Assembly: GCA_021432655.1 (NCBI GenBank)
Contig: MU271563.1
Coordinates: 1-44,261, forward strand
DNA: 44,261 nt
Reading direction: 5' to 3'
From: Atractiella rhizophila
Taxonomy: Eukaryota
In this document: piece by piece, positions 7,151-44,261 of the stretch
Numbering within the stretch: the first letter of the stretch is position 1
Layout of the letters: each line of letters opens with the position of its first letter
Notes under the pieces: model-generated
Told to the model about the DNA's origin: nothing
The model's database searches: none
What the model saw: the letters and a program-made list of their open reading frames with translations, nothing else
Program-made: the position numbers and the translations under genes

Positions 7151-7229
7151 AATTACACAATTCAGAAACATCGGGTAATTTGGGTACACAAAGACAGTGC
7201 TTTGGTGTCGCAGTCATAGTACTGGAAGA

Positions 7230-9960: not shown

Positions 9961-10033
9961 CTTCCTTTTGACTTACACTATATTCATAGAATGTGCAATT
10001 GATGCCTAGGGATGGATTTTTCAAGCAGCCTCC

Positions 10034-13346: not shown

Positions 13347-13886
13347 TGTTGAAGAAACAGAGGTTGTCGAACGAATCCAACCACATCACCTTCAAGATAG
13401 AGAAAGAGGACAAATCAAACCATTCTCTTTTCAACAAAGATGAAGACCTTATTATAGAAGGTCCACCTGAAGGCCCCCCTGCAGATGAGCTGAGTTTGTT
13501 AGAAGTATCTGACAAAGATGGAGGGAAAGATGTTAGAAAGGGCAAGAAGAAGAGCAAGAAGGGTAGGACAAAGAAGATGAATATGTCTGCCACAGTCAAA
13601 GTGAGTTGTTCATCATTTATTGTGGGTAAAGAGAGGAGGTAATATTGATTGTGCCTCAGGTCCTGGAGGTCATCACTAATGAGGAAGACCAGCTGATTGA
13701 TAAAGCCCAAATCAGCTTGTTATTTAGCTGAGATCATAATTTGCAGATATACCTGAAAACGTCCAGATTAAATATGGTGCACATCTTCTCATAGTGAAGG
13801 TGAAGGAAAAGTAGGTGAGAGTATCTTCTCTATTGAAGGAATACATCCTGACTTTTGTTGGGGTACTGGAGAAAATTGGAGGCTTT

Positions 13887-13988
13887 CTACCTTTGACTTA
13901 ATACCGTTCATTCACCAGGATGTATATTATATATCTACCTTTGACTTAATACCATCCTGATGAATGAACGGTATTAAGTCAAGGGTAG
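13887..13988. repeat. Short fold-back (36-bp arms) with a direct copy of the arm start in the spacer
   Basis: 13887-13922 vs 13953-13988 are reverse complements (2 mismatches). CTACCTTTGACTTAATACC is repeated directly at 13935-13953. Confidence 0.85.
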
Positions 13989-14399
13989 TCTACCACCCTG
14001 CTCAATGCATCTGAAGTTAGCACAGTGCAAGGTGTATTTTGAAAAGGTCCCAAAGGAACACAAGGAGCAATCTGTTGTCAGCTCTTGAGTTAACCAAGCT
14101 ACCTTTAAGAAAATGTCTGGGTATATCACAACATCCTTGACTAGATCTGTCAAATGATCCGGAAAGGCCAGATCAAGTTGCTATCCTGAGGGTAAAATTT
14201 CATGTCTCTGAGTTGCTGGCTCAGAGTCATCCTTCGTCTGTTCAGTAGAATAGGAAGAACTGTCTCTTCCTGTTGATCAGACCATGGGTGAGGACTCCTC
14301 TTCGTCTAGCATCAACCAGTCCATAGAGTGACATCAGAAATCTTCTAGTGTTTTGTATGGTGACTACTTGATATACATATCTCATCTTATGAAATGACA

Positions 14400-16954: not shown

Positions 16955-17062
16955 CGGATAGAATCCGGATCAATTCCAAGAATCAATTTTTTTTTTCCTT
17001 TTACACTCCAATTTCGAACGTCACAACGTTACCCTACCCCATTAGACGGTCACCTCACCATA

Positions 17063-17759
17063 TGTTAGGGCTGACACTATGTGCGGTCGCCGATAGGCGA
17101 TGCGTCTGTAGTGGAGATAAACCTAAGTGCATGATATGACATGAAGACTAACCTGTAGTGGAGATAAACCTAAGAGAATACTCTGAGGTCACCTCCACTA
17201 CTCTCTGATCTATATATACAAGCGGAATAACACTGCCACAGAGCGTAGAGGAGAGCAGATGAAACATGTAAGAGGACTAGAAGGGGAAGTGACAGTGGGA
17301 TTACGCGGAGTTAATAAGAGGAGGATAGGCACAATTGGGCTAAGTGGTGATGTAGGCGCAAATGGGCGAACGGGCGCCGATTTGCACTGCGTGCAAATAG
17401 GCGACGGGAGACGCAGTGGCGACGGGAGACGCAGTGGCGACGGGAGACGCAGTGGCGACGGGAGACGTGGCGACGGGAGACGCAGTGGCGACGGGAGACG
17501 CAGTGGCGACGGGAGACGCAGTGGCGACGGGAGACGCAGTGGCGACGGGAGACGCAGTGGCGACGGGAGACGCAGTGGCGACGGGACGCAGTGGCGACGG
17601 GAGACGCAGTGGCGACGGGAGACGCAGTGGCGACGGGAGACGCAGTGGCGACGGGAGACGTAGTGGCGAACGGGCGCCAATTCGCAGGGAACGCAAATGG
17701 GCGATAGGAGACGCAATCCGGCGAACGGGCGCCGATTTGCGTAAGATGCAAACCTGACA
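17063..17759 (-). mobile_element. Solo LTR, subfamily B, inserted in the copia gag 5' region
   Basis: TGTTAGGG...CTGACA ends; perfect TSD CCATA (17058-17062 and 17760-17764). Removing it restores the frame ...PIRRSPHHISNQRNLNV into gag. Confidence 0.93.
17400..17664. repeat. 18-bp minisatellite (GGCGACGGGAGACGCAGT)x15 inside LTR U3
   Basis: 13 full-length units plus one 15-bp and one 16-bp unit; no spacers. Confidence 0.95.
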
Positions 17760-20700
17760 CCATATCAGTAATCAGCGAAATCTCAATGTACCTGACGAAT
17801 CATCACCCACACGATTTTCTTCTCCAGCTATCTCTTCAGTCACCAAGCCTTTAACTCTGTCTACACCTTCTTCTTCTACTTCTTTGGTCCCCATGGAGGG
17901 TCCGAGAATGCCTCTGTACGGTGGTGGTGGTGACCACATCATCAACAACATACCTTCCATTTCGAGGGTCGGGTTTGAACGATGGTGGAAAGTGATTGTT
18001 CCTGGACTCAAGAGTCTAAAAGTTCATCAATATTGCCTTGATCAGAAACCAGACAATGGATTCATACGACAGAAACCCGTTTATCCTGGGGACGATGCGT
18101 CTGAAGCCACGAAAAGAGCTTGGGAAATGAACGTAATTGAATGGGATGCTGGAAATGTGAATGCCATTGCTGTCCTGCACGCGAACATGGATATTTCGGC
18201 TCAGAACAAAATTGCTCCGGACAAGAAACTTGCAACATCGATTGTTGTGAAACTTCGCTCTGTTTGTGGTACATCCCACTCCATCATTGCTCACTCTGCC
18301 TGGGGTACCTTTGCTAAACTATCTCAAGCGAACTCAGGATGCCAATCAATAGCAGAATTTATCATGATGTGGAACAACTCTTACACTGCCCTTTTGGCAG
18401 CAGACTCCCAATACGTTGACTCAGAACGAGTTCGTTTCTTAATCTTTGTCAATGCTCTGGAAGCGGAATGGAGGGATGTGGCCTTGGATGAATCGAAAGT
18501 GCCTCGTAACAACCTGGCAGTGTGCTTCGAGCACCTGAAGAAGGTAGCCCACTCCCGTGGAGTGCAGCACCAACTGGAGGACAAGATATCGACCGGGTCT
18601 ACATCATGTTCGAGAGCACAGAGCGTTAGCGCTTTTGTGACTGGGCTCGACCGACGATTCCCTCCTATGGGACGCTCTAGATGCATGAATTCCCGACAGT
18701 ACAATGCCAACATTCCTATTACCAACGCCCTCCAACTACGGGACCACAGGTATTTTCATACGACGATGCCCCTCTGCCCACTGGGAACATCCAGACCAAT
18801 GCTCCTTTCTCACCCAATCGGACCAAGATTATCCAACACGATCTTCCCCGATTGATCGCCAGTGCTCAGATTGTGAGCAACGTAGATGAGAGATTCCTCA
18901 ACCTTCTACCAGCGGACACTTGGAGGAACATCCTCTTTACATTCCAGGATATACTGCTGAGAATCCACTTGTAGAAAGCGAACCACACTTTCTCTCAAAA
19001 GCTACATATGCAGTTGATGGAGAAAAATCGTTCAAAGAGGCCTTAGCCACGTACACGGATGAACAGTATATCGCTTTCGAATTTCTTCAAGATCCTGACC
19101 ATCCACATCATGACCCCATGCGGACGCCTTCCCCTACTACTGCTAATCCAAGACTATCTGCGTTCTTTGTTTCACCTACGATTCCCAATCATGTTGATTC
19201 ACGACTTGCTTCTTCTTCTTCTAATATTTCTTCTGAACAGCCTTGCTTGGAAATGGTCCCGATCCTTCTTCTTCTCCTTTATCAGTTTCTTATCCAACTG
19301 ATTTCTCATCATATTATAAAAATTTTCGTCATTACCAATTACCTTCTCATCTCATTTCTTCCATTTGTTTTCTGACTTGCGTTGTGGGCAGACAACTTCC
19401 TATTGATGTTGCGGCGAAATCTCCTTATTCAGTCTCTTTGGAAGATGTATCCCAACCCCGATCGACCGCCTCAATCTCGCATACCTCTATCTACGATGCC
19501 ATCATCCCAGATGGGGCCCATCGATTCCTCTTCCGTGATGTCCCCGGAGTCGACATAGTTTCGCTTCCATCCTATGTCGATTCTGCTGCCACCGTGTCCA
19601 TGTCAAGCTCCACCGAACTTTTTGAAGATCTCTGTCCACTCCACCCTCCTCTATTCATTGTTGGAGCGTTTGGCACCAGAGGTTTCGCGACTCACACAGG
19701 GCGTGTACGACCGCTCCTCGAAGATGCCAGGGCCGCGACATCATGCAGGCGGACTTTGGGACTGGCCTTTATGTCGCGGGTCTCGGTGTGACTTTAATAT
19801 CGCAACTCAACTTGATGAAACGATGGATCAAGTTCACCAACAATCGTGATCGTCTCCTCTTCTGATGTGAGAATGGCCTGCACTTTGGGATGGCAAAATT
19901 TGGCAAAAGTCAGATCGAACTGGAGGCAAGTGCCCATTTCTTACCTGCAAAGGAGTACACAACTCATATTCCTATCTCTGCTTATACAACTACGACTGCT
20001 CAAACCTGGCATGCACATTTTGGCCACATAGGGTCAAAACAGTGGAGGGAATTGTGTACTGGAAAGGGGGTGACGGGCTGTGATTGCGATTCGACTAAGT
20101 TGAATCCATGCACATCATGCACGGCTGGAAAATCGAAAGCACGTCCGAGTCGGGTAGTCACTAAGTCGACTTCGTACGCGAAAGGTGAACGGATAGACTG
20201 TGATTTTGTGGGACCTGCCCCAGTTGTGTCAATGCATTCCGGTGTGCGATACGGTCTTAGGACCATTGAGGAGTCCATAGCCAGACTATGGTGGATTCCC
20301 CTTCGAGCCAAATCTGAGACTACGATGGTTCTGAAGCACTGGATTTTGGAGACTGAGCGACGCTATGATATCAAGGTGAAGATTGTCTGAAGCAACAATG
20401 GTGGAGAATTTCAATCTGTACAATTCAAATCTTTCATTTGTCAAAATGGTCTATCTCATGAGACCTCAATTCCTTATATTCATAATCAGATGGGATTTAT
20501 TGAAAGACAGTGGCATACTTTGTTTGATGTTGTATGAACAATTTTGTTTGAATCAGGTTTACCTTTATCTTTTTGGGAGAAAGCAGTGCAGTTCACGGTC
20601 TATACTCTTAATCGTCTTCCGACATTCTCGCATAGATTGTGGAAATGTCCAGAATCATCCTGGACTGGAAAAGTACCAGATGTGTCACACCTCCACACTT

Positions 20701-22090
20701 TTGGACGCCTTGTAGTTATACATATCCCTAAGGAGAAACAGGTCTCAAAATTACATGCAAGAGAATCCTGGGTTACTTTGTTGGATACCTGGAAGGAAAG
20801 AAGGGATGGTTGTTCTGGATTCTGGGACAGAGACGTTTTGTGGAATCTAAGGAGGTGCAGTGGTTTGAAGATCAGTTCTACAGAGACAGGGGGGAGCAGG
20901 AGACGGTAAAATTGACCAGTTGGTCACTGAATAAGCTCATGCCTTCAGATTTTGACTATCTTGCTGACAATATGCCTGTTCAAGTACCAGATGCTGATGT
21001 GATAATACCGCCTCCCATGACGATGACGAACATGCAACTTAACCCTGAACCACCCACTAGATCACCTTCTCTGACAAGGATGCACATCTTACCTGCAGGG
21101 CAGCTGGATAGGTGCGACGATAACAGCGAGCAGGAGAAGCTTTCTGCCGGTAATGAAGGGCAGGAACCCCTCCCACGGACTCGTACTCCCCGAAAGAGGG
21201 TTCCGAATCATTCTCCTAATCCCTACCCGCTGCCTTTGCACACCAGACGGATTATTCCTAGGGTCGATTATCGGGCTTTGAACAGTGGGCTCCCACAACC
21301 TGACAGCGCTCACAGGGATAGGTCCGATCTGAAACATTCTCAAGCACATACAGTAAAACCCCTCTCTCATTCTGAGCGCATTTCGGCTTTCCACCTCAAC
21401 GCACATTTCCAGCCGGGATTACGAGACTTCAATCCATCAGTTGCTGTGAAGGAAATGAATGCAGCTCTAAGGGCTTCAAACCAGTCAGCTCTCCCAGATA
21501 ATAGGATTGGTGTAAGTAGATGGGAAGTATTTGCGACAGGGGTAGGATGGAATGGGAATCTAGATGAACCTACGTTTAAACAAGCATTAGGAGGGCCACA
21601 CGCAGATGAATGGTGGACTGCGATCCAAGCTGAAATGGTGGTTCTTTGTGCCATGGGGACTTGGGAAGACGAGTTGGTTGACTTACCGCATGGAAAGCGT
21701 CCAATTGGATGTAAGTGGGTTTTGCTGATAAAGAGGGACTTAGATGGAAATATCATCAAGTATAAAGCAAGGCTTGTTGCTAGAGGTGACAGACAGGTGC
21801 CCGGGCAAAATTTCAAGGAGACGTATGCTCCTACTGTTCGTATGTCCTCTGTTCGCACCATCCTTTCCCTTGCTGCATCACAACGATGGGCGTTGGCACA
21901 ATTTGATGTTAGCAATGTGTTTCTTCATGGGGATCTGAAAGAGGGAGTATACTTACAGCAACCGCAAGGATTTATGGACCCCAATTCGCCCATCGAAGGT
22001 ATTCAGATTATGGAAGACGCTTTACGGACTATGACAGGCAGGAAAAGGCTGGAATGACACACCTCACACCTTTCTTATGCGACAAGGCTA

Positions 22091-22985
22091 ACGACCCCAC
22101 AGGGACAACGGTGACGACTTTGGTTTTTTTTGCTACAAAAAGTGCGATGCCATTCATAGATTTGAGAAATTTAAGAAACCGTGACAACATATGTTCAGCT
22201 CCATTGCTTAGATGTTATCGTCAAGTGGAATAGCTTATCGGGTAACGATTATGAGAGCAATCAATACGGAAAGTAGTGGTTCCCCATTCCTGGCCTGCAG
22301 GGTCAATGGTGAACCTTGATTCACCTGACTGTAACACGCTCACGCGCATTGCGTCACTGCTCCCTCCTCCATCACAATAGCTCATCCAGCATTCCTTCAG
22401 CCCTCAGGAGCCCCTCAGTATCATAAAACAAGCTCTTAGGTTATGACCAGACCAAAACAACAACCTCCCAAATCTCGAAAAGTGAAGACTGAAGCTCTCA
22501 ACAAATCCGAAACCTATGCTCGACAGCTCATTCAAGACACCCCTGCCTACATCAAGAGACAGGCCAAGAAGAAGGGAAAGCAGTTTCCAATCGATGTTAC
22601 TGCCATAGCGAGAACATTTAGCGTTCCTCGCCAAAGCCTCGTGAATCGACTGCAGGGCCATCGAACGAAGGACGAAGACATGCAGTCACGGCAAAAGCTG
22701 ACACCAGCTCAAGAGGACGCCATTGTCGAAATATGCAACTTCTGCGAACGGATCTTTTACCCTGTCACGAAGCAGTACATCATCAACTTTGCGAAAGAGC
22801 TTTACATAGAGACCCACCCGGAAAAATCAGCGGATGGTCTCAGCAGTCGCGGCTGGTACGAGGGGTTCATGAAACGCCATCCGGAATTCGCCAATCGAGT
22901 AGCCCGACGGATTGGGAAGGAACGTATCAACATCTCGTATCAAGAGTTAGAGAAGTGGTGGGAGGAGCTGGGAAAGGCTTGCGAA
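22091..22985 (+). mobile_element. 3'-truncated Fot1/pogo transposon copy
   Basis: TA followed by left TIR ACGACCCCACAGGGACAACGGTGA; near-identical to the copy at 24075 up to ...GCTTGCGAA, where it runs into an A18 tract (22984-23001). Confidence 0.93.
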
Positions 22986-23001
22986 AAAAAAAAAAAAAAA
23001 A

Positions 23002-23094
23002 GTGCGACCCTTATTCTTTGGTAACGCTATTGAAGAGTTTCTGGTTGGGCGTATCCTGTCCAATCAAACCATACGGCAATGTCACCTCCCCCAG
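23002..23094. repeat. 93-bp dispersed element, copy 1
   Basis: 92/93 identical to 37317-37409; GTGCGA...CCCCAG ends; internal hairpin; preceded by A18. Confidence 0.9.
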
Positions 23095-23241
23095 AATGGT
23101 TGACTATACTGTTAGGAACATGCTGAGAGATAATCGGTGATTGAGTACTCATAACACTTCTTTGGAAACTACATTATCTGTTAAATTGTGTGCAGGCACG
23201 TGTGGCTTCAAGGGTGACAAAATGTGAGGCAACAGAGAATC

Positions 23242-23712
23242 TGTCAGGTTTGCATCTTACGCAAATCGGCGCCCGTTCGCCGGATTGCGTCTCCTATCGC
23301 CCATTTGCATTCCCTGCGAATCGGCGCCTGTTCACCACTGCGTCTCCCGTCGCCACTGCGTCTCCCGTCGCCACTGCGTCTCCCGTCGCCACTGCGTCTC
23401 CCGTTCGCTCATTTGCACCTACATCACCACTTAGCCCAATTGTGTCTATTCTCCTCATATTAACCCCATGTAATCCCACTGTTGCTCCCCCCTTTTACTT
23501 CTCTTACATGTTTCATCTGCTCTCCTCTACGCTCTGTGGCAGTGTTATTCCGCTTGTATATATAGATCAGAGAGTAGTGGAGGTGACCTTAGAGTATTCT
23601 CTTAGGCTTATCTCCACTACAGGTTAGTCTTCATGTCATATCATGCTCTTAGGTTTATCTCCACTACAGATGCATGGCCCTTTGGCGACCGCACATAGTA
23701 TCTGCCCTAACA
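23242..23712 (+). mobile_element. 5' LTR, subfamily B
   Basis: TGTCAGG...CTAACA ends; ~4 minisatellite units; TATATATA at 23557-23564; followed by the self-complementary PBS. Confidence 0.9.
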
Positions 23713-23714
23713 GA

Positions 23715-23724
23715 AGAATACTCT
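23715..23724 (+). promoter_or_regulatory. Self-priming (Tf1-type) primer-binding site
   Basis: AGAATACTCT just after the LTR is the exact reverse complement of AGAGTATTCT at 23591-23600, ~30 nt downstream of the TATA box. No TGG tRNA-type PBS is present. Confidence 0.7.
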
Positions 23725-24074
23725 TCCTCCTTTTCAAAATCAAACTTAGAAAATGTCGGAGGTTTGCGGAGATATGGAAACGCGTGAATCACTGATGAGC
23801 AAAGAACGTATCCATCACTTAGAAAAGATGTTCCAAACTCTACACCTCACAACCGAAAAGCAGTTCAAAAAACTCAGACAAGACCTCATATCAAGTTTCA
23901 ACCAACAAAACACACAAACCTCCCAGAATGCGAATGAAATTGTGTGACTGAGGTCCAACGTCCCAAAACACAAACGACCAAATTTTACAATTGCTGGACT
24001 CCAGACTACCTCCTCCTAACCAACCTTTTTATTACAAAGAGACTCAATACCTCAAACTTACTCTCCTCACTCTA

Positions 24075-27000
24075 ACGACCCCACAGGGACAATGGTGACG
24101 ACTTTGGGTTTTTTTGCTACAAAAAGTGTGATGCCATTCATAGATTTGAGAAATTTAAGAAACCGTGACAACATATGTTCAGCTCCATTGCTTAGATGTT
24201 ATCGTCAAGTGGAATAGCTTATCGGGTAACGATTATGAGAGCAATCAATACGGAAAGTAGTGGTTCCCCATTCCTGGCCTGCAGGGTCAATGGTGAACCT
24301 TGATTCACCTGACTGTAACACGCTCACGTGCATTGCGTCACTGCTCCCTCCTCCATCACAATAGCTCATCCAGCATTCCTTCAGCCCTCAGGAGCCCATC
24401 AGTATCATAAAACAAGCTCTTAGGTTATGACCAGACCAAAACAACAACCTGCCAAATCTCGAAAAGTGAAGACTGAAGCTCTCAACAAATCCGAAACCTA
24501 TGCTCGACAGCTCATTCAAGACACCCCTGCCTACATCAAGAGACAGGCCAAGAAGAAGGGAAAGCAGTTTCCAATCGATGTTACTGCCATAGCGAGAACA
24601 TTTAGCGTTCCTCGCCAAAGCCTCGTGAATCGACTGCAGGGCCATCGAACGAAGGACGAAGACATGCAGTCACGGCAAAAGCTGACACCAGCTCAAGAGG
24701 ACGCCATTGTCGAAATATGCAACTTCTGCGAACGGATCTTTTACCCTGTCACGAAGCAGTACATCATCAACTTTGCGAAAGAGCTTTACATAGAGACCCA
24801 CCCGGAAAAATCAGCGGATGGTCTCAGCAGTCGCGGCTGGTACGAGGGGTTCATGAAACGCCATCCGGAATTCGCCAATCGAGTAGCCCGACGGATTGGG
24901 AAGGAACGTATCAACATCTCGTATCAAGAGTTAGAGAAGTGGTGGGAGGAGCTGGGAAAGGCTTGCGAAGAATATGGGATTGTGGATGCTGATCAAGTGA
25001 ATTGTGTTGATGAGAAGGGGTTTATGCTTGGAGTCTCTCAGAAGGAGCATGTGGTGATGAGAAGGAAGGATCAAGTAAAGAATCCTCAATTTGTAATGGG
25101 TGAGTTTTCCGCTTCTGTTTGTTTGATGGCTAAGGGGAGAATACTGTAGATGGGAATCATGAGTGGGTGACAGTCATCGAATGTATCAATGCTAGTGGTA
25201 AAGCAGCTAATCCCATGATTATTTTCGCTGGAAAGAACTTCATGAAGAGCTGGATGGAGGGAAGAATCAAGACGGCACGTTATGCTAAGTCAGAGAGCGG
25301 TTGGACCGACGACGAACTAGGCCACAAGTGGCTAGCCTTCTTTGAGGAGGAGAATCGCCGCCCCGATCGTAAATGGCAGCTTCTCTTGATGGATGGCCAT
25401 GGCTCTCACCTCACCTTCTCCTTCCTCCGATTCGCACTCGCTCATTATATCCTTCCCTTCGTCCTCATCCCTCATACTAGCCATCTCACCTCCCCACTAG
25501 ACGTTGCGATTTTCAGCTTTCTGCAGCTGTCTTATTCTCGGACATTGGATAACGAGCTAAGGGAGAGGAGGGACATAAAGAAGAATCGATTTTCATATTA
25601 TTTTAGGGAAGCCAGGAAGAATACTTACACGCCAGATCGGATCAAGAAAGCATTCGAAGTCTCCAGAATGTGGCCCGTCGACATCAGTGCGAATCATGGT
25701 CTGGAACCTCTTCGTCGACTTGCACAAGAAGCAGCCAACCCTAGATCATCCCCCTCAATAACACTCTCTTCTGCCTTCACTGATCCCTTCCATAAGCTCA
25801 CCCCCAATACCTCAAGACGAACTGCAGACCTTCTCCTTCTTAACAACCGACCTTCCACCGCTGATCTCCAAACCACCGAAGGACGAGCACTCAAGATCGT
25901 CGAGGGTCTACAGGCATCTAATCAACGCCTTCAGGCACTTGTCATACAACAGAATAAGGAAATCCAACAATGGAAGAACTCGTACATTGAGTCAAAGGCG
26001 ACCCGGACCCAGAAGGTTGTAAAGAAAGGTGTTGGAGCGATTAAAGCAGCTCAACTGGATGCGATGGAGGAAGCCGAAGTGAGGGCAGAAGAAGAGCATC
26101 AAGCAAAAAGGGATAGGAAGGAGCAAGAGAGGTTGGAGAAGCGGGAGAAGATGGAGGCCGCATATCGAGGGGAAGTGGAGGAGAGGCTGCGCGATTATAT
26201 TGCCAGCGGAGAAGGTGGTACCGCGTCTCAGAGAAGAGCTGGCGCTACAGGTGCTGCTCGGTCTGGAAGTGGTAGGGATGGAAGCAAGCGAAGTAGGAGG
26301 AAGAATGTCCAGATCAAGATGGGTACAAAGGTGGACACAGAAAGGGAGGTGGAGATTGAATTGGAGGTGGGAGAGGCATTGGAGCAAGAGTTAGGGATTG
26401 AAATAAACCCAACTGTGAGTTCATACCTTATGAGGGGAGCTAAAGGATCGGGAGGAAAAGAGAAGGAAGAAGTGCAGGAGGAGCAGGACGTTGTGATGTC
26501 GGATGAGTATGTACATCCTGGCTTCGAAGAGGACCACCAGAGCTCAGAGGATGGTTTGGATGGACTGCTGGACAATGCTAAAGATGTAGAGATGGGCATG
26601 GAAGAAGCAGAAAGCCCTCTTAAGAGCCGGAGTGGCAGAGTGCTTAGGCAACCGAAGGTGTTCTCCCCTTCATGATAACTGGGCTTGTTTCTCATTTATC
26701 GACACATCACATGTTTATAGCTTTGGATAAACAAAGTAGATTGCAAATTATGTATAGAGAGTTTACTACATGACAAGCAGCAAAATGAGAACTGGCTATG
26801 ATATTTACATCACTTTATTCGCGTTCCAAGCTCTAAAAGGTCTGATTACAGGTTGTATATCGTAGGTCTAGTTTGTCGCCACTTGCTAGATACTCTGTCA
26901 CGAAATTTCGAACATTCAGGAAAGCATTAAGCATGAGAGAAGAGGAGAATAGGACAAGTTCGACATATTCAATATGTGAAAGTCAGTCAAATTAGTAGCA

Positions 27001-27152
27001 ATCCAGCTCATTTTCGGGATATAGAACGTACTCACTTAGTTCCACATAATACTAAAGAATCAAGCGAAGAGCCTCCATAGTCATCGAAATACCAAGTGTC
27101 GAAAATTAAGTTCACCACTCAGCATGTTTCACCGTTGTCCCTGTGGGGTCGT
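24075..27152 (+). mobile_element. Full-length Fot1/pogo (Tc1/mariner superfamily) DNA transposon
   Basis: 24-bp TIRs ACGACCCCACAGGGACAAYGGTGA (1 mismatch); TA TSD at 24073-24074 and 27153-27154; 3078 bp. Confidence 0.96.
24427..26675 (+). CDS. Fot1/pogo DD35D transposase (732 aa, one intron)
   Basis: Exons 24427-25099 and 25150-26675 with a 50-bp GTGAGT..TAG intron. HTH/CENP-B N-terminus, VDEKGF, LMDGHGSH and SPLDVAIF, with 35 residues between the last two Asp. Confidence 0.92.
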
Positions 27153-30100
27153 TATACCTCAAACTGCACAAGTTTCACCTTATGCAGGAATCAGACTTGC
27201 CCCACCCTCTACCTTCAAAGGAGTGCCTAGCTTGGTGCTGACCTTTCTTCGCGAAATTTACGTCTACACATCTGCCATCCCAGGATAGTTCCCTTCAGAA
27301 AGGTCAAAAATTTTATTTACTCTATCGTATATGAAAGAAGGAGATGCTGAAAAATTCGACGCTGGGATACTGCGCCCACTTGTCAACAATGAAGAACAGA
27401 TTTCGTGGGAGCAATTTTTGTCGGAGTTCAGATGGCGTTTTTGCAAAACTGACCACAAACTTATTGCGCAAACGAAACTGTCTTCCCTGCAACAGAAGGG
27501 CAACCTAGAGTCCTACATCATCAAGTTTGAGGAGTTGGCAAATCAGGCAGACTTTGATGATGAGGTGCTCACATTTTTCTTCAAACGGGGCCTCAATCCT
27601 GCCCTGCACCTTAAAGTGACACAAGGTGATTTCCCCAAGTCCCTTGAAGAGTGGAAGGAAAAAACGCGGCGAATCGACGCAGAAGAATTTGCCCATTCCA
27701 GCTTCTTTTGGGGCATCTCATTGGCGACGAGTGGAACCCAAAATACACCTTCAGCAAAGAAAGATCACTCAAAATCTACGAAACAGAAGGACAACAACGG
27801 ACCCCCTCTGTACCGACCGAGCGCCGCTTTGTCGCCCATCGCCACTTCACAACCTCATGAAGCAAAAGACCCCGACGATATGGAGGTAGACGCAACGAAG
27901 TTCAGACCGCCTCGTTGTCGAAGATGCCGAGAGATCAGACACAGAGAGAAGGAATGCGAGGTGTCCATGAGTAAGGAGCAATATCTTCGTGCACAAGGAG
28001 AATATTTCGACTCTCGTCTCGTAGAACAAGAACGACAATCTGTGCAAATCGCTGACCAGTCGCCGAAAACAAGCGTCGCTCAATCATCGGATCTGGATGA
28101 GGATTTTTGAGACGGCGATGGGTGAAAGGGGTGTCCCTGTCGCCGACTTGCAATTCATTTTCATCATCTAGAGTCACTTCCAACAAAGTGCCGCTTTGCG
28201 CAGATTTCCCTTCTCCCGAACAGGACTCCCCATTTCCAAAATTGCGTTTTCCATCTTGGAGACAAAGATGCGCTGATGTCGCAAAAATGTACGACAAAGT
28301 CCATTTATGTTCGACGACATGCATCCCTAGTCAGTTCGAAAACGAAACTCAGGACCGCTTTCCATCACCCTCGGCGCTCGTTGACAGCGGGGCAACTACT
28401 TCCTTTATTTCTCCAAAACTCGTTTCTGAATACAACCTACCCATCACTCAACTCCCTTCCCCAGTGCCCGTTTACAGTATCGACGGATCTCTCAACCAGG
28501 GGGTTCCATCCATTCTGTCGCTTATTTACCCATCTCGATCGCCGCCTATCACGAAGTTTGGCAATTTGCGGTGGCGGAGTTGGGGATAGTCGACGTGATT
28601 CTGGGTCATGACTGGCTAAGACACCACAACCCAGAGATTAACTGGGCATCAGGGAAAGTTGAGTTCTCTCGTTGCCCCACCAGTTGCAATGCGGTTGATG
28701 TGTCCACCACACGAGACCAACTTCCATCGTCCTCTGCCTTAATACGCGCTGCCATGACAAAATCGCAGAAACTGACGAAAGACGCAGCGGCGATGAGACC
28801 AAAGAGTGTTGTCGAAATACCGACGCAAATCGCCGATTTTGCAGACATTTTCGACGACAAAAAATTCAAAACCTCTCTTCCCCCTCGATGACCTTCGGAC
28901 CATGCCATCAACCTCAAACCAGAAGCTCAACCATATACTGGTCCCGTCTACCCCTTGAAAAGAGACAAACAAGCGGCGCTTGACCAATTCATTGACGCTG
29001 AACTGAGCGCCGGTCGTATACGTCCTAGCACAGGTGAACATGGTGCGTCCGTCTTTTTTACACACAAAAAAGACTCACCCGAACTTCGTCCCCTTTTCGA
29101 CTATCGTAAGTTGAATGAAGCCACAATCAAGGACAAAACTCCACTCCCTATCCAAGCTGGCCTCTTCTCCATGGTCTCTGGTAAGAAACTTTTCAGCAAG
29201 ATTGACCTGAGAAAAGGTTTCAACAACGTTCGCATCAAAGAAGGAGACGAGCACAAAGCGGCGTTTCGCACAAATCGCGGACTTTTCGAACCATTGGTGA
29301 TGTATTTTGGTCTCTGCAACTCACCGGCGACTTTTCAGGCTTTCCTGAACTCTATTTTTCGCGCGATGATCGCTGCTGCGTTCATCTTCATATACATTGA
29401 CGATATCCTCATTGCGACAGAGCCTGAAGAACATTGGGAACGTGTTCGACAAGTTTGTCAAATTTTACGCGAAAATGGGCTTTACGTAAATTTGCAGAAA
29501 TGCGTTTTGTGTCAAGAGGAGGTGGAGTATCTAGGCTTGATCATTTCCAGCAGAGGGATCGAACCAGATCCTGTGAAAGTTGCAGGAGGTGATGGATTGG
29601 CCGGAACCAAAAAACATGAAGGAAGTCCAAATGTTCCTCGGTTTCGCTGATTTCTATCGCCGCTTTTGCGACAGATTCAGCCACATCGCACGACCTTTAT
29701 ATGAACTGACAAAAATGGAGGTTTCCTGGGTATGGGGAGTAGATCAACAACGTTCGTTCGCCGCTTTGAAACAACTCATGACTTCGGTGCCAGTTTTGGC
29801 GCATCCGGAACAAATAGGACGGTTTTTGCTCGAAGTCGACGCGTCAAATTTCGCGACAGGCGCCATTTTGTCGCAAATGAAGCCTGATGGGAAGTTTCAC
29901 CCTCTCGGTTTCGTGTCAAAATCGCTCGACGCTGCCCAGAGGAACTATGACACCTACGACAAAGAAATGCTTGCGATTATGCGTGGACTGCAAGAATGGA
30001 GACACATTCTTCAAGGTACTGATGAGCCATTTCTGATCTTGACCGATCACAAAAATCTTGAGTATTTCAGAATGCCACAAAAGTTGAATCGGCAACAGGC

Positions 30101-32415
30101 ACGCTGGATCACCGAACTTGTATCTTTCAACTTCACTCTTTTACACCGTCCTGGATGAAACTCCGCAAAACCAGATGCGCTCAGTCGGCGACCGGATCAC
30201 AAACCGGCGACTTGCGACAACTTTGACGTAGTATTACTCCCAGAACTTTTTTTCAACAGGATCGTATCACGATCAACGCCACTGGGAGCGCGGTTGCGCT
30301 CACAAGACACATGTCGGAGTTGAGTATACTGGAACGTGTGAAAAAGGTACCTGAACGGGAAGAACAAGTAGTCAAAGCCTTGAGAGAGATCCTAGACGAA
30401 CCAGTCGATGCAATTCACCGACGGGAGTGGCAAGAAGTAGATGGCGCTGTCTACTTTCGCGGAAAACTCTACATTCCCCGCGACGACGAAATTCGCCGCT
30501 CGATTTTGCAAGACCTGCATGATTCGCAAATCGCCGGTCATCCAGGCGTAAAATCGACGACTGCTCTCGTAAAAAGGTACTACTGGTGGCCAGGTTTGGC
30601 GCATTACATTCGCTGCTATGTCGGCGCCTGTCACACTTGCCACAGAACGAAAAACTTTCCTTCCCCACCTGTCGGGTTTTGCAACCAAATGACATTCCCA
30701 CACGTCGCTGGCAAATTGTCAGCATGGACTTGGTTGGACCACTCCCAGAATCTGGGGGGTTCAACATGATTTGTGTCATAGTGGACAGACTCTCAAAACG
30801 CACCCATCTCATCCCCATCCATTCGCGATGGATGCAGAGGGCCTTGCAAGACTTTTTCGCGACCACATATGGAAGCTACATGGAAAAAGAGTTTGTGTCT
30901 AAATTCACATCTGCGCTTTTTTCGCCTATTGGGTATCAAAGGCTCACCATCAACAGCCTATCATCCACAAAGTGATGGCCAGACTGAATGTATGAACCAA
31001 GAAGTTGAGCAATATTTGTGCATTTTCTGCAATCACCTTCAGGATAATTGGATGGAAGGACTCCCCAATGCAGAATTTGCGCTCAACAATCGCATCAGTT
31101 CGGCGACGGGCATAACTCCATTTTCGCTCGATTGTGGTCAACATCCCCGTATGGCCTTTGAACCCATCTCCGACGAGGACATTCCCGCAGCGGCGCAATT
31201 CGTCGAAAAGATGCAAATCGCCGACCGGGAAGCACAAGGGGCACTCGAGCAAGCAGCAGATCTCATGGCAAAACATTATGACAGAAAACGCGCACCGGCG
31301 CCCGAATATCATGTCGGCGATTTCGTCTGGTTGAGCGCGAAAAACATCAAATCGACGAGACCTGTCAAAAAGTTGGACGACAAATGGCATGGCCCTTTTC
31401 GCGTTTTGCAAGTTTTGGGTCCCCTCAACCTTAAACTCGAGTTGCCATCCTCATGGAAGATACATCCAGTGTTCCATGTGGGCCTAATACGAAAAGTCAA
31501 CAAAGACGACATCCCTGGCAGAGTCCAGTTGCCCAAACCACCTCCGGAATTGGTGAATGGAATTGAGGAATGGGAAGTAGAAAAAATAGTTGATGGGAAA
31601 TGGTTCGGTACCCAAAATAGAGTTTTCAAATATCGCGTTCGATACAAAGGGTATTCACCATCTGAAGACGAGTGGATCAACATCACAGATCTAGAAAATT
31701 CGCAGGATGCTATAAAAGACTATCACACTGCACACCCTCTCACAGTTCGTCCCGATTCCATACCGAACTCCGCCAAAAATCACCCAAATGCGCTTTTTCG
31801 CAACCTTCGACGAAAACGCGCTGAAGGGTCTTCCTCACTTTAAGGGGTCCAATACCCCTATATGCCTTGCCGGATGAAATCCTAGTCTTTGATACTTAGG
31901 TCAAGGCAAGGCGCCGACTTGCTCCTCAACGGGCAGGTCGGCGACTTAGGCGACGAATGGACTCACCAATGACCGTCAAAGACGAATGCTCATTGTGTTC
32001 TTGCACCATCACCAATGTCGCATTTATGAAAATTGCCCTCAATCGTGAGGTCCCCTCCCCATCACTTCAAGAGGACCTACTCCTCTACACGCCTCGCTGG
32101 GTGAATCCCTAGTCACATTGTTGAACATAGGTCTAGGGGAGGCACCGGTCTGTTCCTCAACGGACAGATTGGCGACCGGCTTGTTGGTGAGTTGTCCAGC
32201 CCGTTTTCGCAGAATGGGCACTTATTACACCAAAACAACACCTGGTCAACTTCGGAAAAATTCATCAAATTGCGAAGTACATAATGTCTCTTTACTCCGA
32301 CGATTTCATCTCCTTGCAAGCGGCGCCTTGCACTTTAGGCATTTTTGGCAAATAGGCAAACCTCACGAAGCAGAAGTTTCTGCCTGCAGCAAGCACCACA
32401 GAAACTGGGGGGTAT

Positions 32416-32911
32416 TGTCAGGTTTGCATCTTACGCAAATCGGCGCCCATTCGCCGGATTGCGTCTCCTATGGCCCATTTACGTTCACCGCGAATCAGCG
32501 CCCGTTTGCCCATTTGCATTCTATGCAAATCAGTGTCCCGTTGCCACTCTGCCTCTCCCATCGCCTGTTTGCACACAATGCAAATCGGTGCCCGGTCGCC
32601 CGTTCTCCCATTTGTGCCTACATTACCACTTAGCCCAAATTGTGTCTATTCTCCTCTTATTAACCCCAGGTAATCCCACTGTCACTTTCCCCTTTTAGTT
32701 CTCTTACATGTTTCATCTGCTCTCCTCTACACTCTGTGGAGATAAACCTAAGAGCAGATATGACATGAAGACTAACCTGTAGTGGAGATAAACCTAAGAG
32801 AATACGCTAAGGTCACTTCCACTACTCTCCAATCTATATACAAGCGGAATAACACTGCCACACTATAGATGCATCGCCCGTTGGCGACCACACATAGTGT
32901 CTGCCCTAACA
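32416..32911 (+). mobile_element. 3' LTR, subfamily B, with internal inversion
   Basis: TGTCAGG...CTAACA ends; preceded by a PPT; 32740-32857 is inverted relative to the 5' LTR. Confidence 0.9.
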
Positions 32912-34056: not shown

Positions 34057-34578
34057 TGTTAGGGCTGACACTATGTGCGGTCGCCGATGGGCGATGTGTC
34101 TGTAGTGGAGGTAAACCTAAGCGAATACTATAGCATGAGAAGACAGACCTGTAGTGGAGGTAAACCTAAGAGAATACTCTGAGGTCACCACCACTACTAC
34201 TCGATGTATATACATATGTAAAGGCACTGCCATAAACTGTAACGTATGCATCTTTGAAACATGTAAGGCAACTAGTTCAGGAAAGCAACAAAGGGAATAC
34301 TTGGAAATAAGAGATACTGAACAGTACTAGAGAGAAAGGGTAGTAAGGCGAAAAGGTAACGGTGCAGACCGGCGAAGTGTATAAGGTTTGCTGAGTGGCG
34401 ATATGTGTGAGATAGGGGAAGGCGACGATCAGCGCGAACGTGAGCAAAGCGGCGATGGGCAGGCACGCGATCCTATGACGTGGTGAAAGTAGGTCACGTG
34501 ACTTCAAGTGGTGTATTTCGGTAATGTGTAGGGGCAAGCCTGACAGGGCGCCGATCTGGGTGAGATGCAAACCTGACA
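34057..34578 (-). mobile_element. Chimeric solo LTR (complete A-type LTR plus 33-bp B-type terminus)
   Basis: The A end ...AAGCCTGACA at 34545 is followed by GGGCGCCGATCTGGGTGAGATGCAAACCTGACA. TSD GAATC (34052-34056 and 34579-34583) flanks the whole unit. Confidence 0.9.
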
Positions 34579-37143: not shown

Positions 37144-37316
37144 CACATGTTGTTCTCCATATTGACCTGCCTCATCTCTTTTGTGTATATTTATCTGTAA
37201 CTGCTTTTATAAATGCACTGCAACAAATATTGTTGTGTTGATAAGAACAACGTTCGGAGCATAATTTGTTCGGTGGATATAACGTTGTCATCATTGAAGA
37301 TCACAGCACCTGCCAA

Positions 37317-37409
37317 GTGCGACCCTTATTCTTTGGTAACGCTATTGAAGAGTTTCTGGTTGGGCGTATCCTGCCCAATCAAACCATACGGCAATGTCAC
37401 CTCCCCCAG
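37317..37409. repeat. 93-bp dispersed element, copy 2
   Basis: 92/93 identical to 23002-23094, with identical end points. Confidence 0.9.
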
Positions 37410-38416
37410 CGGCCAATCCTCCTGAACGCACTCCCTCCTTCCGCTTCCTACCTCCAGAGTCTCTCCCCTTTACGGTCTCCAGCTCCCCCGCCTACAGCTC
37501 GATGGCTGCTCCCAAGACGCGGATTAGGAGGCTCAGGTTGGATGCATACGACTGTGCCTGCACAAGACGGTGCTTCAGAATCGGAAACAGAATCTACTGA
37601 GACAGCTATACCCCCTCAAACGTCAACGTCAGGCCGGGAAGTAATTCGAATTGAAGCACGAGCATCGGGGGAGAGAGACAGAGGAAGGGAAACAACGGAA
37701 CATGGCATGTCGCTTCTCTCCAGCGCGCGTGCCACACTTGCCAGTTTGGCGGCAGAAGAAGTCCCGAATATGAGTGCTAGTGAAGAAGAGAGCCTTGCAA
37801 GCATTAGAGAGCGTCAAGCGAGGACCATTGATGCACATACTAGCGTGAGTTACTTCTCCGTTATACTAGGACTGGGATGGTTCTGGAAGGCTGCATCGGT
37901 GTGCAGTTGATATCTGCTCAACGCGAGACATTGCGAGCAGCGGAGAGGACTATACATCTTCTCCAGGATCAGATACGGTTATACGAAGTCCGTTCACGCT
38001 TTACCGCCCGTCTTTCAAACTCCTCCACCTCATCATCCTCTCTCGCCGCCTCTTCTTCCAACGGCTCCCCACAACCTTCAACATCGGCCTCAACTGCCAC
38101 TGGACAATCCCCATCGCGGCACTTTCACTCCGCCCACAACGCGCTGAATACCCGCATCCGTGCTATCTCCCTTGATATCGCGCGGCAGCGGGACGCGGCT
38201 AAAGACAGGGAGAAGCAGGATACGGAGAAAGGAGAGGAGCAAGAGGACGTAGAAGAGGAGGAAGAACTGGTGATCATGCAACGGTGGTTGGAGGACTTGA
38301 GGACAGGTAAACGAGCCGCAGATGGCACCTTGCTGGGTCCTGCGCGTAGGAAAGAGATTGAGGAGGAACGACAGCGAGGAAGGGTGAGGAAGGATATGAT
38401 GAGTGTCGAGCGATAG
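37410..38416 (+). CDS. Hypothetical low-complexity/coiled-coil protein, 5' end uncertain
   Basis: Two open frames joined by intron 37845-37906 (GTGAGT..CAG); stop TAG at 38414-38416. First in-frame ATG is at 37542, but the frame is open back through the 93-bp element. Confidence 0.55.
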
Positions 38417-38676
38417 CAATACCAATCACACCGTTGTCAAGCTTTTCATTTCTAAATGTTGTATTATTATCGAGTCTTGGTGCAAATGCACACCTTATCG
38501 TTCATGCAATTCATGCTTCACGATCAGCTGTTACTTCGAAGTTATGCCAGGGATGGCATCATGATCATGCCCTGGATCACTATCCGTTGAGCTGGGTGTA
38601 GACCCGCGCAGCAAATCTTATATCTTTTGCTGCGGCTCAAACATTGCTTTGATCAACCAAACTCGCTACATCACTT

Positions 38677-40776
38677 ATGCGCTTAAACCAGCCCCTCGGA
38701 AGTGTAGTGCCAGCAATCCTAGGAATATTCCTTTTTGAAGGCACTCTCTTTGTGTATGGCGATGTTGGCAAGTCTCTCGTCCTTCGACTTGCGTGCCTTC
38801 TCCCTAACTCTTTGGCAGTTCCCTATCTACGTTATAATCAACAAAGTGTCGTGTTCTCGAGTGAGTAGCTTTGGGTCAAATGTTTCTCGAGTTTCACCAC
38901 GGTAAACCCAGTGATTTACGCCTCTGGCTTTGGCGTGTTTGCTCTCTATGCTCTTGTGACCTACTTCAGTAACAACCTTCTTTAGGCTCAGCGGGTCCTC
39001 CTGTGCGCTTGGCGAACCAGATTATAGAAACGAGGAGGCCATCAAGGCTTGACATGTCCAGTGCTGCTCGGGACGTTCTACACCTGGCAGTTTGTTTTGA
39101 CCAGGATTGTTTCCGGCATTTCAACTACAAGGTGAGCGGGTGTCTATGCGAGACGACTGAAGCCCAACATCAAAACCGTTACACGAGCTGGTCACCCCTT
39201 TCCTATGCTGTGCCCTGTCCTATAGTTTCTGCACTTAGGCCTCAAAGCGACACTAAAAAAGGTCACCATACGTGAGACTTGTAGTTCCAGTACTTCGACT
39301 ACTAGACGTCCTACTGCTCGCAATTTGCTGGCGGTTACTCACGTCATAGCCAAGGAGGAGGTTTTGCGTTCTTCACTTCAAAAAAGATTAAAGCGTACGA
39401 ACTCAAGGAAGCAACATACTCACTACGACATAGAAATAAGGGAACCAAGCTTAGACATACATTGCGTATACGAGCCAGGGTCGAGCTAGAACAACTCGTC
39501 CGAGAGACGTAGTCGCCTATGTCAATTCGCACATCGCTAAGAAAGACAAGTAGATACGGTGTGACGAAGGCTCGGTAGAGTTCGTCTTAGAGGACGGTAA
39601 AGAGTAAGTGAACACGGTCGAATGGCTAGAGGGGAGTGATATCCATCTCATAAGTACTGGTAGACTTCCACACTTCCTGTATGATCGCCGAATGGATCCT
39701 CAAGGACTTTCGGTTAGAGAGGTTCACTGAGGGTAGTGTGAAGAGGTTAAAGATACCTGAGGCGCCAACATATCTAGAACTCTTCCGCTCTGATCGTGGT
39801 GCGTTGGGACAGGAGGGGGCTTTCCTTGGGTTTCAAAGTAAGCCCCCAGTATCGGTAAGAGGGGGGAAACAAACTTTAGAAGAGGTTTCGAAGCATGCGA
39901 GCATGAGGTGTGAGCAATAAGGCGTAAGTTCAACGGTTTAATGCCTCATCTCGTACTGCCACCTGTTCCTGTTTCACTAGCAGCGTTTCTTCTGGTCCTT
40001 CTTCCTACTTTTACTCCCTGTGCGTTGGGCTAAAGCACTCCTGCGTCGCAGATTACTCCGTATAAACTTCCTTATCATATCCGGCGGGTAGGTAGATTTA
40101 CGCCACAACTACTCTGTAGTCGTTGCCCGGATTTCCGAATGGAGGTAGGTCCAGGTGGCTAGGTTCTGGAGGACTCCGAGGTGGTTACCAGGAAGTAGGT
40201 AACCAATGACGATAGTTCGGTGTGTCAAGCGTGTTAGAAAAGGCAGCTTAGTCGCATTGATACCTAGTTTCCGAGTTCGAATGTTCGCTGTCCACAAATG
40301 GTTAACCGGTTTGTTCGCCCTAATTACGGGTCCATTCTTCGTCGCCCTGTTAGCATTGTTTAACTTCCTTCCCGAAGTAGCAGTCGAGATTGCATTACGT
40401 CCTCAGTTTGGACGCCCTAGTAATCATTCCCTTTATTTCTTATGACCAATCTTTGAGTTGTACCTGTTACTACTAGTTTACATCTGGACTTCAACGAATT
40501 TAGCGTTACGGTCTGTGTTCCTTCATTTCTGTGTGAACGTGTTAGGTGTTAGGAATGTCACAGAGCTAGAGTCCCCAAAGGTTCGAGGAGGCGTTCTGGG
40601 AACCTTCGTGAAACGCCCACATGGAAGGTCCAGGCTACTAAGTATATAGATTACTTATTAGTAGTCTATACTGTAAAGGATTGTGAGCCCATCCATTTGG
40701 GTGGTGTTTAGAGAGATCTTGTCGGAAACCTTGGAGCTTACCGCCGAAGCTTACCACTTCTCCAACCCGCATCTGG
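38677..40776 (+). CDS. DHHC palmitoyltransferase; 5' exons normal (38677-38969), remainder encoded in the mirrored segment read 40776->~39524
   Basis: TM-rich start MRLNQPLGSVVPAILGIFLF...YALVTYF. Reading + backwards without complementing continues RVYAQPLHH...[33 protein letters not shown](W)FDSCI...MKPFLQF...GITSVE...LYNRGVHRNWRSVMG, mostly with GT-AG introns. Confidence 0.9.
38970..40776. other. 1807-bp segment reversed without complementation (mirror-image sequence; probable assembly/processing artefact)
   Basis: No meaningful protein in the six normal frames. The reverse reading gives DHHC exons and the complement reading gives the APN2 Zf-GRF. The left junction restores codons TTC AG|G GTC. 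Confidence 0.97.
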
Positions 40777-40801
40777 NNNNNNNNNNNNNNNNNNNNNNNN
40801 N
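40777..40801. other. Assembly gap (25 N)
   Basis: Run of 25 N inside the APN2 coding region. Confidence 0.99.
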
Positions 40802-42420
40802 CTCTTCGTTGCAGGTGTGGTAAAGAAATTGGCGAGAGTTGGCTGAACAGAAGACTTGTTCTTTTTCTTCTTCGAGTTAGTGGACGAGGGGCGTTCGGCT
40901 TCGGAGGTCGATTTTCTCTTCTTGGAAGAAAACCGTTCCTTCACAGGCGACGATGCTGCACCGGCAGAGGAGACGGTAATCATGGATGATTCCTGAGAGA
41001 GAGCTGAGGATGTACCGTTGTCAACAGCTGAGGAAGAGAGATCTGTTGATGAGGGAGGTCTACTGTCTGCCGCCTCCGGAGCTAGTGAAGACTCCGCCTT
41101 CTTGTTGAAGAAGGTGGTTAATGTGCCTTGTTTGAACTCTTGGTAAAATTTTGCCGCAAGTGGGGGAGGTTCAACTTCCTGGTCCTTGGCTCTACTAGGA
41201 TTGAGTTGGTCCCACAACCTGAACGTTTGTCCATCGACCTGGATTTCCTCCCGAAATGTCGCTACGACAGGGCAATGATCGCTACCTTTTATGTTGGGTA
41301 GGATATCACAACCATCGATCCAAGGAAGAAGACCATGAGTGACAAGGATATAGTCAATTCGAGTGCCATAGTTTGAAGCTCGCGCATCAATCTTCGTGTT
41401 CCAGCAGGTAAACATCTTCTCTCGGTCTGGATGGAACTTCCTGCAGATGTCGATGAGAATCCCGTTCTCGTTGATAAGATTGTCGAGCCATCGACGAGAC
41501 GGGTGCCAATACCAGTCTGTGATTCCGTGCTCCTTCATCCTCCCTTCAGGATCGCAATGATCTAGCGGACGATGACAGATATTCATGTCCCCAACAACGA
41601 CAACCTCCCTCCCTGCCTTCATTAAACCTCTAACTCTAGATTCCAACATAGATTCGTATCGATTCTTGTATTCCAGTCGGTCATCATTCGTCTCGTTCGG
41701 GCAGTAAAGGTTGATGAGAACAAACAGGGACAGATCAACCATCGTGCAGCGGCCTTCACAGTCCAATTCGAGGATCTCATTGAAAGTTAAATCAAGAGAC
41801 TCTAATGAAGGATGAGGGAGGATTTTAGATGAGTCGGAAAGAGCGGCAACGGTCTTTAGTCGGCCAGAAAGACCCTCTTCAGCCTTCACGGGAACGACGG
41901 TCGACTTCTTCGTGTAGATTCCAGTGCCGGAGTAACCCTTAACTGGGACGCGCTGCACAAAGGCATAAATCAGTTACAGTATTATTAGCTGTGTAATGAC
42001 CATGATTAACCGAATAGAAGGAATAAAAGCAATCGAACTCGTTCATGATGCACATATTCCGCTCGACTTGTTTTCGTGTCATTTTCGTTTCTACCACCAC
42101 ATTCTACGGCACCCTTCGCATCATTAAGAGAGGACGCACCTTGTACACACACAATGTCTGCATTCATGTTGGCAATTATCCCTTCATAAGAGCTGTTTGG
42201 TTTGAAGTACTCTGACCAACTGGTACCGGCTTTCACTCAGCTTATTTCGCGCTATCAAAGAGAGCACTTGCGGGTGATAGTAAGGAAGTGTTTTGAGTCC
42301 GTTCTAGGTACCACTTCAGTCCAGACAGACGGTTCGTGTTTGCTTACGATATTCCATGTCTAACCGCGACAATAGGTCATGACTGTCAGCTGTGAACTGA
42401 GTACTCACCATTAGCTTCAT
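40802..42420 (-). CDS. APN2: ExoIII-family AP endonuclease 2; C-terminal Zf-GRF lies in the mirrored segment (complement of 38970-39377)
   Basis: Spliced start MKLM|TWNI|NGLKTL, then ADIVCVQ, KGYSG, LDCEGR, INLYCP, VGDMNI, FTCWNTKIDARASNYGTRIDYIL and GSDHCPV; PIP-box-like QPTLANFF. Confidence 0.93.
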
Positions 42421-43041
42421 CCCAGCCGTGTTGGCCCAATAGTTGCTTAGTAGCTGTGGAGCTCTGAAGTCTTAAAAGACCTAGCGCGGCGGTCCAAGCT
42501 GTTGATAGTGGTCGTTTGACTCTGCCGGAGTGGCAACACCAGAACGCGAGAGTGGAATCTCGATCAACGCTCAACATAGAATGAGCGAACGACGGAGGGA
42601 GCAAGCATATCAACAAGACAACAAAGGATTGGATGCTATTATAGGGAGCTAGGACATTGCACAATCTCATTTACGACTTCCAGGTAAGCGCAGGATATTC
42701 CACTGTTTGTAAATGGGTGGGAGCACATTGAGCGGTTTAGAACAATGACAAGGTTGTTGAATCTATTTCGGACTAGAGCAATTCCTCTACAAGCATTGTT
42801 CCGCGCACTGAATTCAGGACTTGTTATCTGTAATGGATGAATCTACCTTATTCTAGCACATGTAATCCGGAGGAAGTAGGTGCAATGAAGTAGATGTGCC
42901 GCCTTGATTACATGTGGAGGATATGGAGCCTCTACCGGTGTCAACATCTACGCTACTTCGATTTTCTCAAAATCTATACAAACCTCTCCCCTTTCTCAAT
43001 GTTTTGGATGTGCTCATTCGTTCTAAGGCAAACACAATATC

Positions 43042-44136
43042 ATGCTCCTCGTTTTAACTCACCCTCTCGCTTTGTCCACCTCCTATGTTGCATCCCTCTA
43101 TCTCTTCAAACCGCGTCAACAACCATCTTCAGATGCACCGGTTCACCTGCCGCGAGACAATCCCGCTGTGATCCGAGCTCGCCTAACAGGACTTTCACTC
43201 TCCACAATCGCGTCTTTCGGACTACTTGCCCTTCGTTATCACCGCTCTGGACTCTCGATACTCGGGTGGAGAGGGTTGTTTGATCTCCTTGGCTTACAAG
43301 TCGACCGTCAAGCCATCAAAGCAAGTATCGTTGGAGTGGGGTTGACAGCATCCCTTTTTGCCGGGCCTCTTTTTGTTGAGTTTTTGGATCGAAAACTCCC
43401 AGGACAGAAGTGGTTCAGCTTGAAGCGTTGCTGGGGAGATGTAACGAGTTGGATCGGGCTGCGGAACTGGGTCTTTGTATGGGTTTATTGCTTCTACTGG
43501 TCCACCTGGTCCACGGAGCTGAACTGAGTCAAGGCACCGTTGACGGAGGAGCTGATTTTCCGCTCTTTCACGTTCGCTTCCGAGTTCATTATGACCAACG
43601 GAATGGTAGACTGGAAATGGCTTGTATTCTTTACACCCGTTTATTTTGGAGTTGCTCATGCACATCATATTTGGGAGTCCTATGTGCAAAGTGGGAGGAC
43701 AAGGGATGGACTGATCAGAGGAAGCATCCAAGCTGGTATGTCTTTCCCTTGTATTGGTAATTCTACAACTAATTTGTCAAAGCTTTTCAATTCTCCTACA
43801 CTACACTCTTCGGATGGTACTCGAGCTATCTCTTTTTCCGAACAGGTGTGCTTCTCCGATCTAGCACTAGCACAACCTGACTAGCGACAGGTTCTGTTTA
43901 TCCTTCCATCTTCGCCCACACCTTCTGCAATATGATGGGCTTCCCAACTTTGGGATACGATCTTGATCGCTATCCGGAGAAGAAACAATGTCTGTCCCCC
44001 CTCTCACACAGGGCTATCGTTAATCAAAGTCATAGCCATTATCTGCTCTTACATCGCCGGCATCGTTGCTTTCACGGCTGGTATGGTCGGATTTGTGCAC
44101 ACAAGGGAATTCGTTTATTGGCCAGCGCTCCTTTGA
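43042..44136 (+). CDS. RCE1: CAAX prenyl protease 2 (Rce1/Abi family)
   Basis: RDNPAVIRARL, LRNWVF|APLTEELIFRS, FGVAHAHH, FQFSYTTLFGWY and AHTFCNMMGFP; four introns; stop TGA at 44134-44136. Confidence 0.92.
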
Positions 44137-44261
44137 TCTCTTTCAGTCTTGGATTCAATTCACTTCAAGCGGTTTTTGTTACAGTTTGTTTCACAACGCA
44201 GCGGTACATCTGATAATATATAAACAAAAAGATGAGGCAGCACGAAATGAGAAGAATATGA

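Follow-up and report, generated by a model that had tools for sequence, protein, structure and literature searches.

Two kinds of known assembly fault come close to the one described here. Gap fillers of the PBJelly type lay a patch directly beside a spacer of 25 N, the form in which PBJelly writes gaps that were extended but not closed, and a patch that is an unpolished long-read consensus is expected to carry frame breaks at homopolymer runs. In an ordinary assembly inversion, a contig is entered as its reverse complement, so that the orientation is wrong locally, beside a scaffold gap. The locus we studied in Atractiella rhizophila has the patch beside the 25-N spacer, the frame breaks at homopolymer runs and the local error of orientation. 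It differs from the products of PBJelly-type tools in that these tools are not known to enter a patch reversed but uncomplemented; it differs from an inversion in that an inverted contig keeps its genes readable on the other strand, whereas here neither written strand is readable. One utility of the PBJelly suite uses a default minimum gap of 25 (PMC6240028). Among the matches listed in a literature search for assembly errors of the reversed-but-not-complemented type, none, judged by title, dealt with assembly errors of any kind.

The window, by which we mean the whole stretch of DNA that was analyzed, is 44,261 bases long and contains a single run of N (40777-40801, 25 N). A block of 1807 bases, 38970-40776, begins inside a gene on the + strand and extends up to this spacer. 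An earlier note, made from the letters of the window, had claimed that this block is legible only when it is reversed and not complemented. Homology, k-mer direction and the letters of read-derived contigs at the left junction agree in supporting that claim, and we conclude, with a probability of about 95%, that the block is an artefact of mirrored text and that the true DNA has the mirrored order, running from 40776 down to 38970 after position 38969. In what follows, the mirrored block is the block reversed without complementing, and corrected coordinates are those of the window with the block turned around in this way.

Homology and k-mer direction of the block

Immediately to the right of the spacer, on the - strand and in normal writing, lies the main exon of an APN2-like AP endonuclease gene (40802-41973, with upstream exons reaching to ~42303), which is matched by the Pfam family Exo_endo_phos (E 8e-12) and is truncated by the gap. 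Its public protein (P0001; 'DNase I-like protein, partial [Atractiella rhizophila]', 99% identical) is 455 residues long, lacks a GRF zinc finger, is flagged 'partial' and ends exactly at the gap edge. Apart from mismatches at a splice edge, it is identical to the translation of the window as far as the codon that borders the spacer. Most of the 120 listed APN2 homologues have ~560-680 residues and a C-terminal GRF zinc finger (PF06839). A metagenome scan with APN2 returned only two distant loci, at 33% (L001) and 46% (L002) identity, and no close relative; the former occupies positions 353-1669 of a metagenome contig of 4278 bases.

We compared the 120 homologues by tblastn, on both strands, with the block as written and with the block reversed but not complemented. 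The mirrored block was matched at E<1e-3 by 101 of the 120 homologues, with a best E of 5e-22; the block as written was matched at this threshold by none of the 120 on either strand (best E 0.036). The matches fell at the end of the mirrored block that faces the gap, at corrected positions 40757-40479 on the minus strand, which is where the APN2 gene would be expected to continue. As written, these C-terminal exons occupy 38989-39267 and become legible when the letters are complemented and read rightward. The aligned residues were 513-590 of P0028 (the best match), 565-633 of P0035 and 547-615 of P0024, and in each homologue the Pfam domain Zn_ribbon_GRF (PF06839) lies inside the aligned range, at 534-565, 577-608 and 559-590, respectively.

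A profile of the homologue tails gave the same distinction between the two readings. For its construction, we took the C-terminal 120 residues of 109 homologues out of the 120; the partial protein of the contig itself was excluded, as were ten homologues of fewer than 560 residues. This profile matched three of 81 translated segments of the mirrored text, at E values of 1e-13, 1.7e-11 and 0.027 (Z set to 1000), and none of the 74 translated segments of the text as written at E values up to 10. The mirror reading had been made to depend, among other things, on a GRF match in the reversed block, and both the profile and the tblastn comparison found a match to the homologue tails that carry this finger. 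The mirrored text gives the APN2 tail as ...C-K-M-W-T-V and then, one base out of frame, N-K-T-G-P-N-K-G-R-K, followed by a 50-base GT..AG intron and by F-W-Q-C-A-R-P-V-G... to the end; this tail is co-linear with the homologues. The far end of the block, which had been said to abut the 25-N gap within APN2, indeed falls in the linker of that protein.

Readings of the block as written were searched for protein families as well. Its four longest as-written ORFs had no Pfam family above cut-off, and a hit to Nt_Gln_amidase in one as-written ORF (E 0.051; 13.6 bits, against a cut-off of 27) was judged to be due to chance. We dropped ORF length as a means of telling the two readings apart: the longest ORF in the block measures 100 aa in the written and 109 aa in the mirrored reading. 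Short introns in the genes, together with the two frame breaks, make the measure uninformative here.

The direction of the text can also be assessed without any reference. In real DNA, the frequency of a k-mer is symmetric with that of its reverse complement, but not with that of its plain reverse. We trained a k-mer model on both strands of the rest of the window and summed the logarithm of P(k-mer)/P(reversed k-mer), with k=4, over windows of 600 bases. Inside the block, every such window was negative (mean -31.5, range -43.9 to -24.1). Outside the block, the mean was +33.2 (sd 15.8, minimum -9.2), figures that are slightly flattered by the model having been trained on the same sequence. The segment with the lowest sum in the whole window was 38770-40675 (sum -98), and the next-lowest, 34096-34386 (-23), was four times weaker. 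These results indicate that the block is mirrored over its whole length and that no other stretch of comparable size in the window is. The dinucleotide counts show the signal in its simplest form: the block contains 121 TA and 82 AT, and the rest of the window contains, per 1807 bases, 91 TA and 128 AT. The counts of GT and TG in the block are swapped relative to the flanks in the same manner. The description of the block as 'TA-rich' therefore holds as a signal of direction.

Elsewhere in the window, region 1-16000 has no ORF longer than ~154 aa, either as written or mirrored. Its k-mer direction is normal, which argues that this region is not mirrored, and its lack of long ORFs is likely to reflect intron-rich genes. 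A fragment of a sugar transporter was seen there at 1770-2234.

Contigs at the junctions and the interrupted genes

Fourteen public sequencing runs contain part of region 37200-42600, and the contigs of four of them (X1, X2, X3 and X5) were compared with the window over 38370-41369. X1 and X2 derive from one sample and X3 from another. X5, with 0.13 of the words of the region, contributes only a loose end before 40802; the runs that were not used, X4 and X6-X14, hold 0.05-0.14 of the words. The read evidence consists of 30 loose letters at each junction, and no read or contig spanning the whole block was seen. In all four runs, contig cover is missing from 18 of 18 hundred-base bins between 38970 and 40769 and present on the flanks; this hole in the cover is not probative.

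The contigs of X1, X2 and X3 agree with the window as far as 38969, precisely, and extend beyond it for another 68 or 182 letters (182 in X3). Of the 30 letters that are visible beyond this point, 29 agree with the mirrored block, against nine that agree with the written text; elsewhere in the window, in four readings, the same 30 letters have no fit better than 12 mismatches. Mapping of reads had been proposed as a check on the mirror reading, with the expectation that they would fit the corrected version only, and at the left junction the read-derived contigs of three runs follow the mirrored order. The single mismatch among the 30 letters is of the same order as the divergence of the runs from the window, which differ at five of 568 places to the right of the gap (40802-41369).

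These differences were observed in their own right. Five substitutions, at 40890, 40931, 41026, 41067 and 41224, are common to the contigs of X1, X2 and X3, and the same runs show none in 38587-38969. Although they come from one sample, X1 and X2 disagree at 38419, 38476 and 38548, and they show a small insertion at 38600-38601. The pattern suggests two haplotypes or strains.

The contig of X3 omits 38861-38911, a GT..AG stretch, and a second stretch of 51 bases; the two 51-base, intron-like omissions make it look like a spliced transcript that crosses the junction. On the basis of this contig, the normally written 5' part of a + strand gene (38677-38969) comprises exons at 38677-38767, 38819-38860 and 38912-38969, separated by introns at 38768-38818 and 38861-38911. 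The first of these introns is apparently GC..AG, not GT..AG, once an allowed shift of one ambiguous base is made in the X3 contig. The last exon runs in frame into the mirrored block: in the spliced translation, the frame that opens at a putative start codon, the ATG at 38677, passes through Y-F at the end of the normal text into R-V-Y-A in the mirrored text and remains open for 46 codons beyond the junction. The in-frame Y-F-R-V-Y-A junction described earlier was thus reproduced, and it coincides with the point, exactly after 38969, at which the contigs leave the text of the window.

The mirrored continuation of this gene contains the tetrapeptide DHHC. Among all 12 readings of the block, this tetrapeptide occurs once, on the + strand of the mirrored text, encoded at corrected positions 39270-39281 (40465-40476, read from right to left as written). 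It is absent from the written block and from the remaining 42 kb of the window, as written or mirrored. Excision of a 49-base GT..AG stretch yields HC-x2-C-x2-C-x4-DHHC-P with K-P-x-R before it; the arrangement HC-x2-C-x2-C-x4-DHHC with a preceding K-P-x-R is what we take to be the core of the DHHC cysteine-rich domain. The N-terminal exons also show two hydrophobic stretches. On the strength of its motif, the hidden gene is a putative DHHC-type palmitoyltransferase (PF01529). The earlier claim of a DHHC gene in the reversed block is therefore upheld at the level of the motif, which appears in the mirrored reading only. We searched a collection of 5.8 billion proteins with a 71-residue ORF that spans exon 1 of the DHHC-type gene, among proteins of 39-125 and 126-2000 residues, and found none that carries this exon.

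Both hidden genes contain a frame break at a homopolymer run. In APN2, the peptides '...CKMWTV' and 'NKTGPNKGRK' occupy neighbouring frames and are too close together for an intron to fit between them, at the run 39091-39093 (T as written, A in the sense of APN2); the off-frame piece is the one that matched the homologue-tail profile at E 0.027. A one-base length error is probably present in this run or in the next one, 39095-39098. In the DHHC-type gene, the frame slips at a run of six G (39861-39866), between a stretch that resembles what is presumably the TTxE motif and the next conserved-looking stretch, and here again a comparison of frames points to a probable one-base length error. Homopolymer indels had been claimed at 39091-39093 and 39861-39866. 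Both positions proved to be sites of frame breaks, and to this extent the claim stands; the extra bases themselves are deduced from the frames.

On the other side of the gap, all four runs have contigs that come up to 40802 from the right and extend past it; for X1 and X2, the record lengths imply an extension of at least 573 letters. The 30 letters that precede 40802 have no match in the window in four readings (the best has nine mismatches), indicating that real DNA is missing at the spacer. In the alignment with the homologues, ~80-110 residues of APN2 are unaccounted for between the two sides of the gap, a rough estimate because the linker is poorly conserved; this suggests that ~200-300 bases are missing.

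Origin of the mirrored text

A DNA strand reads 5' to 3', and we know of no recombination, inversion or template switch that gives a reverse-only copy. Since the contigs, moreover, show an organism without such a copy, the error must be sought in the text. The view put forward before, that a fault of assembly, gap filling or processing is likely and biology is not, is supported in that the block behaves as a text artefact. For the opposite view, that the organism truly carries a polarity-reversed copy made by some unknown biological process, nothing speaks beyond the written record itself. It conflicts with the chemistry of strand polarity, and the contigs of two samples depart from the written text at 38969 and go on in the mirrored one, as does the contig that appears to be a spliced transcript. 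We consider it the least credible of all the explanations weighed here.

Only slightly more credible, and still very improbable, is an explanation that makes the block an ordinary inversion or misjoin, that is, a reverse complement, or else foreign or degenerate non-coding DNA whose matches in the mirrored reading arose by chance. The absence of long ORFs and family matches from the written block would fit this. An inversion would, however, have left the genes legible on one of the written strands, on both of which tblastn gave 0 of 120 (best E 0.036). Chance could hardly account for matches of the mirrored text at E 5e-22 with tblastn and 1e-13 with the profile. The k-mer direction of the block, too, is inverted and not merely unusual, and the contigs continue with mirrored text. 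A somewhat larger, though still small, probability attaches to the idea that the deposited assembly is correct and that the mirror arose after the public record, in later handling of the data. Against this, the block ends exactly at the N spacer of the assembly and starts inside a contig, as a patch would and a file-level slip would not; P0001 breaks off at the gap and carries the flag 'partial'; and there is no protein model with exon 1 of the DHHC-type gene (39-2000 residues), even though the gene is present in a spliced contig. The partial state of P0001 and the lack of an exon 1 protein fit a deposited record that was already mirrored.

An artefact of mirrored text in the assembly itself is thus the reading we prefer. 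As to how it came about, we would give even odds to a gap extension made from long reads. Under this proposal, a patch would have been made out of error-prone long reads with minus-strand alignments, and would have extended the left contig into the scaffold gap without closing it. The patch would then have been either reversed or complemented, but not both; either slip would produce the same text. A 25-N spacer would have been left for the unclosed remainder. Whatever the cause, the true order in the organism is the window up to 38969, then 40776 back to 38970, then an unsequenced stretch of probably ~200-300 bases, and then 40802 onward. A gap-extension patch fits the observations in that the block has its start within a contig and its end at a fixed 25-N spacer and breaks off midway through the APN2 linker, and the occurrence of two one-base breaks at homopolymer runs within 1.8 kb fits an unpolished long-read consensus. 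A tool of the PBJelly type is a reasonable suspect. The Atractiella genome data are called unpublished in one passage (PMC13347111).

Consequences and surrounding DNA

The mirrored block is not a feature of the organism and does not represent new biology; its importance lies in the quality of the data. Almost all of the putative DHHC-type palmitoyltransferase gene is unreadable in the contig, and the annotation of APN2 is that of a partial protein lacking the GRF zinc finger, its DNA-binding tail. Both the DHHC-type gene and the APN2 tail exist in the organism, though they are absent from the record. Atractiella rhizophila represents a whole class in phylogenomic work (PMC13347111). Genes falsely recorded as lost in this species therefore pass into such analyses.

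It is possible, though we think it doubtful, that we are dealing with a systematic fault, a single software step having produced mirrored patches at many gap flanks of this assembly and perhaps of others from the same pipeline. If so, real genes would be invisible to annotation and would be scored as absent in the comparative genomics of a sparsely sampled fungal class. The k-mer direction score requires no reference and can be used to scan any assembly for mirrored text.

Other features of the window were recorded in passing. Downstream of APN2, at 43027-44213, lies a gene for an Rce1-like CAAX prenyl endopeptidase (Pfam PF02517, E 2.5e-5), which is spread over several frames, presumably owing to short introns. 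The + strand of 17000-32700 carries a cluster of mobile-element remnants. They are a Copia-type RVT_2 at 20732-22057, a Tc5/pogo-type transposase with HTH_Tnp_Tc5 and DDE_1 at 24424-26675, and a Ty3/Gypsy-type element at 27289-31843 with gag, RVT_1, an SH3_Tf2-1 domain and a chromodomain.
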